Source: Eledone cirrhosa (taxonomy: Eukaryota). Taken from it: DNA of 64,000 nt. The notes beneath the pieces are model-generated. The model saw only the letters and a list, made by a program, of their open reading frames with translations. It was not told the origin of the DNA and searched no databases. Location of the stretch: the NCBI GenBank assembly GCA_964016885.1, contig OZ024765.1, positions 13,020,001-13,084,000 on the forward strand. Reading direction: 5' to 3'. This document shows positions 5,363 to 45,059 of this stretch, in pieces (the first letter of the stretch is position 1; the number at the start of each line of letters is the position of its first letter). The position numbers and the translations under genes were made by a program.

Positions 5363-5476
5363 CCCGCTGATGAAGCTGCATAAGCCGATTGTGTATTGTT
5401 GCATAATTAATATATGCAGACAGATGGTGCAGTTCACCTTACTGCTGCCTTAGTGCGGCAGAAACTCGAGTCCGGG
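5363..5476 (+). ncRNA. Type I hammerhead ribozyme motif with extended stem II
   Basis: CCCG-CTGATGA-(a gctgca taag ... ctta g tgcggc a)-GAAA-C-TCGA-G-TC-CGGG. Stem I is cccg/cggg, the stem-III loop TCGA is palindromic, cleavage triplet GUC. Confidence 0.75.
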
Positions 5477-6043
5477 AACCATTATAGGCACCCGTTTTAC
5501 GTATGTTGTGTTGAAGCAAATAACTGTGTGTATACTCTGGTAATGTATCTTACATTGCCTATTGAGTACGCTGAGATACAACCGGTACTGGCATTGAGAA
5601 ATATGCTGGGTCCGTCAACCCTTATTATATATATATGTATGTATTTATATATAACAGTGTTGTAGTTTGCTTGAAGCATTGTTGAATAGGAAGTATAAAT
5701 TTAAATAATTTTAAAAGCCTTACAATGCATTAGAAAATTAAAGATGCCAAGATAACAATAGAATTTTACCGTAGCAAATTTAATAATCCCAAATATTTTC
5801 AGGTTTAAAAACGCATTATCAAGGGAGTATCCCTGTGAAGATCTTAAAGGATCGATCGGAGACGAGTTGTTCTTAGCAATGGAGGTTGAGGGTGTATTAA
5901 GGGTTGGTGGGGTGAAGGGTGTGGGTTTGTAGCTAGGTCAATGGGTAAGGGGAGAGGAGAAGGGGTGTGGAGGTGCTACAGCATGGTCGTTTAATGTATG
6001 ACTTGCTGTAAAAAACTGTTACGTTGTTATTTCTGATGTCTGC

Positions 6044-7545
6044 TCACACACACATACACATAAGCACACACACATTGAATCACATACATACACACACATA
6101 CATACACACACACACACACATACACATCCATACATATAAACAAACACACATATACACATACAAACATGTAGAGATACACACATATATGCATACTTACACA
6201 CACATACATACATACATACAGATACACACTCATACACATAGAGATATACACACATACATACATACATGCATACTTACACACACACACACACATATACATA
6301 CATATAGAGATACAACATACATTCATACACATACAGAAACATACATATAGAGACACACATAGATCCACAAACATACACTCACACAGCACACACATACATA
6401 TATTCATACATCATCACACTTAAACACATACATACACACACTCACACACACATATATATATATATATATATATATATAAACATATATGTCACATACATCC
6501 GCATACATATACAATTAGACACATACACATATATATATACACACACATAGGCACGTGTGTGTGTGTGTGCATGTGTCTGTTTATAATGGCTAAACCATAC
6601 ATAGATGTACATACATATATGTATGTACACATGTTTATACATATATGTATAATCACGTTTGTATACACACACACGTTTATATACACACACACATACACAC
6701 ATGCACACACACACATATATAGACACGTGTGTAGGCGTTGGAAAAAATCTTTCCAGTCTCCACCCCCTATCGTGTGAACTCATTTATATCATGTACACAC
6801 ACACACAGGCTCCTGTACACACACACACACACACAGGCTCCTGTACACACACACACCACACACCATACTCACATGCCCCTATACAGGCACACACACACAC
6901 ACACACTCACACTCAGGCTCCTGTACACACACACACACACACACACCTTACAACACACAAATACACCAATAACCATACACATATACACACACTCACACAT
7001 ATACACAGACACACACATACCCCATACACTCCCCCACACACACACACCAAACACCATACACTCACTCAAACACACATATACACACACACACACCCCACAT
7101 AGACACAGTGCACACATACACTATACACTCCCCCACATACACACCAAACACCATACACACACTCAAACACACATATACACACACACCCATACCCCATACA
7201 CTCCCCCACACACACCAAACACCATACACACACTCAAACACACATATACACACACACCCATACCCCATACACTCCCCCACACACACCAAACACCATACAC
7301 ACACTCAAACACACATATACACACACAGACACACATTTATTTATATAGACATATGTGGCAGTGTTTATGTACACCAGTGTCTACAATTATATAGACAAAC
7401 CCTTTATAGACAGGGTGTGTATATAGATGTGACTAGAAAATATAGAAATATATCGGATGTATAGACGAATGGATATATAAATACATACTCACATATATAA
7501 ATATGAATGTATGTGTGTGTGTGTATATATATATAGATAGATAAA
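6044..7545. repeat. Degenerate (CA)n/(TA)n low-complexity field
   Basis: Seen directly. Confidence 0.9.
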
Positions 7546-7703
7546 TATACACGGGTGTGTATGATTATGTATAGAAGATTATATTAATAAGAGGAATTCC
7601 AACTTTGTCTGATTTACTCGTTTTATTTACAATCCTTTAAAATTTATATAATATGGTATTATAATGAAATAGTATGGTAGAATATTAAATGTTAAGTGTT
7701 AAT

Positions 7704-7742
7704 TGAACAAGTACTTTCATGCTTTCGCAATCTTCAGGTTCA
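7704..7742 (-). ncRNA. Minimal type I hammerhead ribozyme motif (39 nt)
   Basis: Minus strand reads TGAAC-CTGAAGA-t TGC GAAA GCA t-GAAA-GTAC-TT-GTTCA: 5-bp stem I, tetraloop stem II, palindromic GTAC. Confidence 0.7.
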
Positions 7743-7969
7743 TAATGTGTGGTGACAGTCAAGTTTGCAATTTTCAACTGTTGAATATATACTGTATATA
7801 TATATATATATATATATATATATATATATATATATATATATATATATATATACATATATACAGAGTGTATATATATATATATATATATATACATATATAC
7901 AGAGTGTATATATATATATATATATACAGAGTATATATATATATATATATATATATATATATACAGAGT

Positions 7970-42619: not shown

Positions 42620-43515
42620 CCATTACCACCACAACAACCACCATCACCACCATCACCACCACCACAACACCACCACCACAACACCACCATCACCCTATCT
42701 CCACCACCCTATCACCAGCACCACCACCTCCCTATCTCCACCATCACCACCACAACAACCACCATCACCACCACCACACCACCACCACACCACCACCATC
42801 ACCCTATCTCCACCACCCTCTCACCAGCACCACCACCTCCCTATCTCCACCAGCACCACCACCACCTCCCTATCTCCACCACAACCACCACCACCACATT
42901 ATCTCCACCATCACCACCACCACAACCACCATCACCACCACACCACACCACCACCACCGCCATCACATTATCTCCACCACCCTATCACCACCACCACCAC
43001 CTCCCTATCTCCACCATCACTGCACCACCACCCTATCTCCACCATCACCACTGTCTCCCTATCTCCACCACCAGCAGCACCACCACCACCTCCCAATCTC
43101 CACCACCCTATCACCAGCACCACCAGCACCACCATCACCCTATCACCGCCACCCTATCACCAGCACCATTACCCTATCACCACCACCCTATCACCAGCAC
43201 CACCACCACTATCACCACCACCCTATCAACATCATCAACACCACCATACCACCATCACCATCACCACCATCTCCCTGTCTCCACCACCACCCTATCTCCA
43301 CCACCACCACCATCATCAACATCCACCCAGCACCTGTTGGAACACCTTCATAACAGAATGGATGTTTGAGTGTTGTTTCTCTAAGACTGCTGGGATTGAA
43401 GGAAGTGTGGAATTGGTGGTGGTGGTGGTGGTGGTGACGGTGGTGGTGGTGGTGGTAGTGGTGACGATGGTGGTGGTGGTGGTAGTGGTGACGATGGTGG
43501 TGGTAGTGGTGACGA
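42620..43515. repeat. (CAC)-rich tract followed by (GGT)-rich tract
   Basis: Seen directly. Confidence 0.9.
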
Positions 43516-43868
43516 GGTTAACTTTGCCTTTCATCCTTACGGGGTCGATAAAATAAAGTACCAGTAATAAACTTGGGTAATTGATGGCCTTGTGCCAGAA
43601 ACAATTATATTGGTGGTAGGAAAAACATCCAGCTGTAGAAAGCTTGCGAAACATAGGGTTTGGAGGACCCTCAGTTGTGTCAAAGGCTCGACAACCTCTC
43701 CTGTCACTGGGTAGAGCATGAATCTGTATATATGCAAGATGGCAGATCCCTGGCTTGTCTGGTAGATAAGTAGCCACTGATTAAATAATGACATCGGCCA
43801 TGTAGACTTGTCCAACCCTTGCTAGCAGAGAAAGCAGCCATTAAAACAATGATGATAATGATATATAT

Positions 43869-44207
43869 CATCATCATCATCATTTTACGTCCGCTTTTTC
43901 CCTGCTTGCAAAGGTGGGACGGTAACTGATTCTGGCCTGATCTTCTACATCTGGATGCCCTTCCTAACACCAACCTAATTTACAGTGAGTGCTGGGTGCT
44001 TTTTTACCGTGGCACCTCCACGACCACTTTGCAGTGGAATGATAGGGACCCCAGTCCCTATTATCTCATTTCTACAGCTGAGTAAACTGGAGCAATGTGA
44101 AATAAAGTATCTTGCTCAAGGAAACAACACATTACCCGGTCTGAGAATTGAACTCGCTGAGAATTGAACTTTCGATTGCAAGGCCAATGCTCTAACCACT
44201 AAGCCAT
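43869..44207 (-). mobile_element. SINE family A; another partial copy at 44686-44924
   Basis: Match to the consensus. Confidence 0.88.
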
Positions 44208-45003
44208 CTATATATATATATGTGTGTGCGATGCTTTGAAGTTGACACTTTACAGAGAGGTGTGTTGACACTTTACAGGGTTGGTGTTATCACTTAAACT
44301 GTCTGTGGTGTCTCAGCTTCAACAATGTTTGACATATAGAATACTTTTATCTACCCTTTGTAAATTGAAATGCATCTATGAATACACACGTGTTTTTTCT
44401 CAAAAAATTTTTTTTTTTCCATTCCTTCCTCTTCTCACGGTCCGAAACATTAAGACTCCTTTCCTACTCTATCAAGCGTTAAACTAATATATTTCTTCAT
44501 CGTTTGCTTTGTTATTTCTGTTTACTTTTTGCACACACTCAGATATACAAACAAACAAATACACACATACACAACACATAATTTCTATTTTATAACAGCA
44601 TAAACATTTTGAGCTTAAATATTTTTATTCGCCATTTAATTTCTCTTCAAGTCACTCTATTTCTTCTTTTTCTTCTTTTTTTTTTTACGTCCGCTTTTCC
44701 CTGCTTGCAAGGGTAGGACGGGAACTGATTCTGGCTTGATTTCTACAGCTGGATGCCCTTCCTAACATCAACCTCCTTTACAGTGAGTGCTGGGTCCTTT
44801 TTTGCCGTGGCACCTCCATGACCACTTTGCAGTGGAATGATAGGGACCCCAGTTCCTATCATCTCATTTCTACAGCTGAGTAAACTGGAGCAATGTGAAA
44901 TAAAGTGTCTTGCTCAAGGAAACATATATATATATATATGTCCCAAGGCTCTGATACCATCAACACTATAAACACAGAGCTGGCATTATCTAAGAACTGA
45001 CTA

Positions 45004-45059
45004 ACTGCCTGATGAGGTCATAGCCATTCAATGGCTATCATCGAAATATATATAGCAGT
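45004..45059 (+). ncRNA. Type I hammerhead ribozyme motif, canonical core
   Basis: ACTGC-CTGATGA-GGT c ATAGCCAT tca ATGGCTAT c ATC-GAAA-T ATAT A-TA-GCAGT, followed by AATAAA. Lies in an insert of about 165 bp between (TA)n runs. Confidence 0.82.

Follow-up and report, generated by a model that had tools for sequence, protein, structure and literature searches.

Predicted minimal hammerhead ribozymes of several Penelope-like element families in (TA)n tracts of Eledone cirrhosa

An earlier note on a 64,000-nt stretch of Eledone cirrhosa DNA (GCA_964016885.1, contig OZ024765.1, forward-strand positions 13,020,001 to 13,084,000; the window) pointed out eight short motifs resembling hammerhead ribozymes and ascribed them to Penelope-like elements (PLEs) or retrozymes. 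We found that these scattered motifs are minimal type I hammerheads from several PLE families which insert into (TA)n. Very probably they belong to the pseudo-long terminal repeats (pLTRs) of endonuclease-bearing PLEs and of non-coding elements that depend on them. On this interpretation the window holds short dead copies in (TA)n, and the head-to-head pairs among them would come from two complementary DNAs (cDNAs) made on uncut RNA.

All eight motifs were recovered where they had been reported. The first strict descriptor gave 5 matches in the window, against means of 0.00-0.01 in two sets of 100 block-wise dinucleotide shuffles. A second descriptor, loosened once the motifs had been seen, gave 7 strict and 8 relaxed matches (shuffle means 0.02 and 0.14, 50 shuffles). 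The 8 relaxed matches comprised seven of the named motifs and one unlisted U3-A8 motif at 5822(-). These seven carried the core that had been claimed (CUGANGA or the U3-A8 variant, GAAA, a UH site, and helices I and II). The eighth, at 24418, failed the descriptor because a T-to-A change leaves it a stem I of about 1 bp, compared with 3-4 bp in other copies of its family. It is a damaged copy of a genuine hammerhead family, so the claim of one common fold stands for seven motifs and for the family of the eighth. The palindromic stem III loops were as described, except that 35607 has one G-U position, and helix III was self-complementary over 6-8 nt in six of six families. AATAAA, said to follow often within about 10 nt, did so in four of the six families and was missing at 5363 and 7704. 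Single-strand folding did not recover the full hammerhead for most copies, which is expected because the motifs are minimal. Among the best 150 of 679 Rfam matches there was no hammerhead; those 150 were microsatellite matches.

The motifs of the earlier note fall into six families, here F5, F7, F20, F24, F29 and F45. The proposal that several distinct (TA)n-targeting families exist was supported, and open reading frames (ORFs) with reverse transcriptase (RT) and GIY-YIG endonuclease were linked upstream of the pLTR for four of the six (F7, F20, F24 and F45). The families are unrelated in ribozyme sequence, as had been stated, but not in origin: their parent proteins fall into two pairs of relatives, with tblastn identities of about 50% and about 45%, the latter between the F7 and F24 parents.

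F7 sits about 390 nt downstream of a 674-aa frame that matched RVT_1 (E 1e-6, just under the cut-off) and GIY-YIG (E 2e-6). Its insert in the window, with tail, spans 7533..7781(-) and begins at the site where the 5' ends of the family pile up, about 30 nt past a TATA-like box; the hammerhead is at 7704..7742(-), with predicted cleavage between 7709 and 7708. F24 sits 1.4 kb downstream of a 590-aa frame with RVT_1 and GIY-YIG, and a same-strand endonuclease match was present upstream in 9 of 30 loci. Its insert in the window, also with tail, spans 24379..24593(+) and contains the U3-A8 hammerhead 24418-24454 with the damaged stem I. Both parents have DKG, a CX4CxxC linker and a CCHH-type C-terminal GIY-YIG domain, and by these motifs they are assigned to the Neptune/Nematis type, the two clades not being separated. 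They share the microsatellite bias of Neptune/Nematis PLEs, whereas most copies here are promoter-start fragments of about 200-250 nt.

At one F20 locus a GIY-YIG domain lies 1.3 kb upstream. This endonuclease query drew 41,390 first-look candidates; when 20 loci surrounding such a match were retrieved, 18 had a same-strand F20-type pLTR downstream. F45 sits 1.1 kb downstream of a broken ORF related to the F20 parent. In the window, F20 forms a head-to-head pair of a tail-less arm at 20117..20287(-), with hammerhead 20163-20225, and a tail-bearing arm at 20295..20559(+), whose hammerhead (20361-20425) has a stem II weakened by two changes. A copy of a related subfamily with tail (87% to the F20 reference) occupies 35469..35666(-), with hammerhead 35607-35666. 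The F45 insert spans 44936..45107(+), with hammerhead 45004-45059 and predicted cleavage after 45054. In the parents of F20 and F45, DKT and a CxCX5C linker are present and CCHH is absent, and these motifs fit the Hydra clade as defined in section 11 of PMC8557442. CxxC and CxH surround the conserved E and N, CxH being seen only in F20 (the F45 copy is frameshifted near its end). RWR replaced RWK in three of seven translated Hydra-type loci; in the other four the motif was damaged or out of range.

By eye, the parent proteins resemble Hydra-1_Obim of Octopus bimaculoides. According to the account in PMC8557442, the Hydra clade, to which this element belongs, shares the C-terminal endonuclease, DKT, CxCX5C, the lack of CCHH, a hammerhead and (TA)n insertion. 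The clade differs in having RWK, and the supplement of that account notes no pLTR for Hydra-1_Obim, whereas pLTRs, tails and inverted copies occur here; the hammerhead listed there for Hydra-1_Obim also differs in sequence from those here. In F20, about 220 nt upstream of the cleavage site, a run of pyrimidines closes with CAG and resembles a 3' splice site (L008:1330-1345; also L002), and one F20 copy starts exactly there.

The (TA)n setting was confirmed. Of the 363 3' ends that could be classified, 323 adjoined (TA)4, compared with 10% of background windows of 30 nt; target-site duplications are unreadable inside (TA)n. The 3' ends were fixed at (TA)n and the 5' ends were variable, with 5' truncation, partial tandems, inverted 5' copies and an optional tail. 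Two alternative 3' ends, with and without the tail, occurred in five of seven families, while F5 and F45 had a single one. The seventh family, F58, was absent from the earlier note and contains the unlisted motif; its insert spans 5655..5865(-), with a U3-A8 hammerhead at about 5787-5826. It lies tail to tail with the F5 insert on one common (TA)n tract.

We collected 90 head-to-head pairs, 68 of which could be classified by whether each arm was long (with tail) or short. Long-short pairs numbered 65 and long-long pairs 3, and no short-short pair was found. In an earlier hand count, 60 of 65 pairs were long-short (p = 2e-13 versus independent choice). F58 was examined once the idea was set, and 11 of 12 inverted partners stopped at the short end, the main arm having been selected for its tail. 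At the 5' end, the short arm reached more than 15 nt further in 13 of the 65 pairs and the long arm in 19, and the two were level in 33. The arms did not overlap in 5 pairs. One of these is the F29 copy of the window, in which a tail-less arm at 29196..29444(-), with hammerhead 29255-29312, meets a tail fragment on the opposite strand at 29442..29514(+) without overlap in element coordinates, a twin-priming geometry. Arms of the same locus differed less than arms of different loci in F20 (1.6 versus 3.25 differences, 10 pairs) and F24 (2 versus 7, 2 pairs), which supports one source for both arms.

These pairs could be explained in the same elements by self-priming, in which the first cDNA folds back and the non-overlapping cases are later deletions in unstable palindromes. 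The level 5' ends (within 15 nt in 33 of 65 pairs) agree with this, as do the many F7 junctions that are near-perfect hairpins at one spot and the private variants common to both arms at four F7 loci; PMC3846280 describes a tail on one of two inverted pLTRs and argues for self-priming from palindromic junctions. In contrast, a second arm made by fold-back cannot exceed the first, so simple fold-back would not yield the 13 pairs with a longer tail-less arm. Two cDNAs primed from both target strands at two RNA sites can give such an arm. Offsets in both directions (13 versus 19) are likewise expected for two separately ended cDNAs. Three of the five non-overlapping pairs belong to the young F29 family, whose copies are 98-99% alike, leaving little time for deletion. 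We therefore lean slightly towards twin priming at two RNA sites as the cause of the pairs, and regard fold-back with later deletion as a serious but doubtful competitor. Any other origin, for instance a pair of RNAs from a common source, appears improbable.

The 5' ends were also used to ask which RNA served as template. Of 229 flank arms, 8 began between -5 and +14 relative to the predicted cleavage site, much as in neighbouring bins, and 137 read through. For F7, in a sample of 42 arms free of 5' bias, 27 began no more than 7 nt from a single site, which lies about 30 nt past a TATA-like box. F24 was similar, F29 (in a sample that was not unbiased) had such a box roughly at this distance from its 5' pile-up, and F20 did not. 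F7 and F24 share a short conserved block followed by the TATA-like box about 30 nt before the main start point (L273:6860-6925 and L284:6250-6310). The lack of a pile-up at the cleavage site, together with the promoter-like start of F7 and F24, suggests that uncut RNA from a pLTR promoter is likely the usual template, in line with PMC11167929; cleaved RNA as the usual template was rejected, as 5' ends showed no excess at the cleavage site. Five of the 42 F7 arms, from two pairs and one single copy, began within -9 to +7 of the cleavage site, which may be an edge effect, the query having begun just behind it. Two F7 head-to-head pairs (L324:625-910 and L329:1360-1674) have both arms starting about 10 nt or less from the predicted cleavage site; they may be relics of insertions templated by cut RNA, or show the same edge effect.

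We propose that the element protein would nick (TA)n on both strands and that two cDNAs would be primed on uncut element RNA, one at the end of the tail and one at an internal TA-like site. Joining of the cDNA ends would give a head-to-head pair with the tail on one arm. Published work suggests that the ribozyme may cut slowly as a dimer through its palindromic helix III, perhaps aided by protein, and that it would process tandem transcripts rather than be required at each insertion. A stronger form, in which PLE insertion is obligate twin priming by a dimeric RT-endonuclease that nicks both (TA)n strands and uses two fixed sites on one uncut RNA, seems to us evenly balanced between true and false. 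In vitro work on the Poseidon element PAc (PMC11167929) reported that synthesis starts at two sites, one at each border of the tail, that both strands are extended and that the RNA used is mainly uncut. Our elements agree in the two start sites and the uncut template, and the genomic pairs go further by suggesting that each of the two sites is used once per insertion; they differ in tail length (about 35-140 nt versus 30-40) and in their TA-like ends. The steps after initiation are left unvalidated in that report's account of the reaction.

In L1 twin priming, an inverted 5' segment is primed internally from the second target strand and abuts the first cDNA. Here, unlike in L1, the proposed second site would have a constant position within each family, and in most pairs the two cDNAs would overlap.

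Several points weigh against our interpretation. Among the pairs, 22 of 90 were unclassed, with an end interrupted or truncated, 3 had tails on both arms, and later deletion inside palindromes could also shorten a tail arm. The likeness of paired arms was weak in F7 (1.1 versus 1.4 differences within and between loci, 19 pairs) and unsupportive in F29 (1.0 versus 0.5, 5 pairs). The presence of terminal TA bases or of the tail in some queries biases the matches towards these features, and the start sites of PAc in vitro show no homology to the target, whereas the ends here are TA-like. The Hydra-type proteins of F20 and F45 matched no Pfam family, so that the clade calls rest on motifs. For F5, F29 and F58 no same-strand PLE match was found upstream in the loci examined, and an autonomous parent may lie elsewhere. 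Finally, the self-cleavage of the motifs, as monomer or dimer, is a prediction from sequence, and their expression is putative.

Two of the families without a linked ORF consist of non-coding units. The F5 unit is about 843 nt long and occurs in partial tandems only; its 5'-truncated copy in the window, 5329..5625(+), ends at (TA)n and contains a C3-G8 hammerhead at 5363..5476(+) with an 87-nt stem II region and predicted cleavage after 5472. The F29 unit is 2.9 kb and was found head to tail in two loci, with two intact hammerheads 2.9 kb apart; the one unit translated had no frame above 99 aa. F5 and F29 likely borrow the enzymes of PLEs. They could instead be read as classical retrozymes, that is, short self-cleaving tandem repeats with circular RNA and no pLTR origin, and their non-coding nature, permuted or full tandems and lack of a linked ORF in the loci seen agree with this. 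As an account of the inserts in general this is very unlikely: four families stand directly behind PLE ORFs, the pattern of tail and inversion seen in the coding families recurs in F29 and F58, no accumulation of 5' ends was observed at the cleavage site, and the two tandem-looking arrays that were checked proved to be a satellite and a duplication. The first, an F24 array on contig C3 (68084679-68105951), is a satellite of about 900 bp with one F24 copy in every unit and at least 12 same-strand hammerheads in 21 kb, which might dimerise if transcribed through. The second, two F7 copies 5.6 kb apart considered as a full element, is a duplication containing another long interspersed element (LINE). 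Two F29 arms 3.7 kb apart were also rejected as element ends, with no PLE ORF in between. The earlier description of several PLE or retrozyme families is correct, with the adjustment that most inserts are 5'-truncated or promoter-start terminal-repeat copies and not tandem retrozymes. Non-LTR retrozymes, as treated in PMC7229834 and in a bioRxiv survey that derives retrozymes from PLEs (10.64898/2026.07.22.740005), resemble F5 and F29 in being non-coding, hammerhead-bearing and proposed non-autonomous PLE derivatives. Our two families are known from DNA as short or partial tandems, not as long arrays or circular RNA, and the F29 unit is three times the longest consensus in the bioRxiv survey (972 bp).

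The abundance of the motifs was estimated in the 3.0-Gb genome (1796 contigs) from fifty-one 10-kb stretches at round coordinates on large contigs, 510 kb in total. We obtained 29 strict and 41 relaxed matches, and ten shuffles gave 0-2 and 0-3. The density of about one motif per 8 kb given previously holds in the window and is slightly above the sampled genome rate of one per 12-18 kb. Extrapolation gives 170,000 strict (bootstrap 100,000-241,000) or 241,000 relaxed motifs (bootstrap 153,000-335,000), and intact-looking motifs may be undercounted since many F24 copies fail the descriptor. First-look candidates, which are not copy numbers, amounted to 2126 for F20, 2396 for F5, 442 for F7, 984 for F24, 1838 for F29, 283 for F45 and 1910 for F58; F5 and F58 were also high-copy in one other sample (three sequencing runs of unspecified kind). 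In 1.9 Mb enriched for these families, 538 distinct matches formed 80 clusters, 30 of them with at least two members. Several other hammerhead families carry 70-130 nt inserted in stem II, as in F5.

The matches depended on the core. With the strict descriptor in the 510 kb, C3-G8 gave 25 and U3-A8 4, while the swapped pairs C3-A8, U3-G8, G3-C8 and A3-U8 gave 0, 1, 0 and 0; the core mutants gave 0 for three G5 changes, 2 for U4C, 0 for A6G and 0 for A9G. Stem covariation was present: among 14 hand-picked related pLTRs, in an alignment where stem II is off by one in some rows, 8 of 18 predicted pairs were altered on both sides and the core was invariant apart from position 7. The idea that AT-rich, microsatellite-rich DNA produced these folds by chance, which gains a little from the loosening of the descriptor after the fact and from a few long-stem-II singletons that may be chance at up to three relaxed shuffle matches per 510 kb, is therefore refuted by the shuffles, by the 30 multi-copy clusters with their own complementary stems, by the core-mutant controls (0-2) and by the covariation, and its probability is negligible.

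The metazoan PLE hammerheads described in PMC4209133 are alike in being type I, with a short palindromic helix III, the U3-A8 variant and many families per genome; most copies stand alone, and some form opposite-strand pairs spaced 100-700 bp. Weak cleavage of dimers is also described there. Unlike that described set, some families here have very long stem II regions (70-130 nt). Our estimate of 100,000-330,000 motifs compares with a maximum of about 9,000 (Xenopus) in the counts of PMC4209133, and with the figures of PMC7229834, more than 6,000 for a coral and as many as 120,000 retrozymes for the axolotl; the descriptors differ, so the numbers are not strictly comparable.

Further hammerhead remains occur in the window: a decayed F24 copy at 15428..15510(+) that has lost G12, another without tail at 16415..16566(+) with A9 and the palindrome altered, and a decayed head-to-head pair of a further hammerhead family at 49664..49940 (strand unassigned). 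A very abundant repeat of about 190 nt in (TA)n lies at 45127-45310(+) and near 4067-4237, 31318-31530, 40575-40677 and 63054-63263. It is frequently found beside hammerhead inserts, often as fold-back pairs, and gave 30 BLAST matches in the 510-kb sample. The descriptor detected no hammerhead in its window copies; the repeat is possibly a TA-targeting element, either of Penelope type without a hammerhead or of another kind. Two long, almost perfect palindromes with AT-rich centres (5055-5200 and 38895-38998) drew spurious microRNA matches. The window is rich in microsatellites (179 tandem-repeat rows) and has minisatellites at 13043-14192 (50 bp, 24 copies), 26177-28259 (20 bp, 104 copies) and 21858-22288 (61 bp, 7 copies). 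Fragments of the C-terminal region of a LINE-type RT lie at 19345-19524 and 21699-21983, and no long host-gene coding frame was seen in the 64 kb.

Earlier publications already describe the motif, the dimer model, the U3-A8 variant, TA targeting and an octopus Hydra element; our additions are the density and the insertion geometry. In the literature covered, which lies outside subscription papers and Repbase, we found no report of these families or of a twin-priming model for PLEs. The main text of an octopus repeat study (PMC13282606) leaves ribozymes unmentioned, and its repeat library may hold these families under other names. The relevant parts of PMC8557442, which describe inversion of copies, a tail that is frequently confined to one end, and a (TA)n bias, and of PMC3846280 state the origin of tandem and inverted PLE insertions as open.

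These results show that tens of ribozyme motifs per megabase can escape repeat annotation. The tail rule and the non-overlapping arms can be counted in the genome, and as a test they speak for twin priming rather than self-priming. For obligate twin priming, the genome of E. cirrhosa, with up to about 300,000 hammerheads from at least 30 families and with non-coding parasites as long as 2.9 kb, would hold enough young insertions for proof by sequence comparison. If obligate twin priming is true, it would explain both the one-sided tail and the head-to-head inversion of PLEs, which have been described but not explained.

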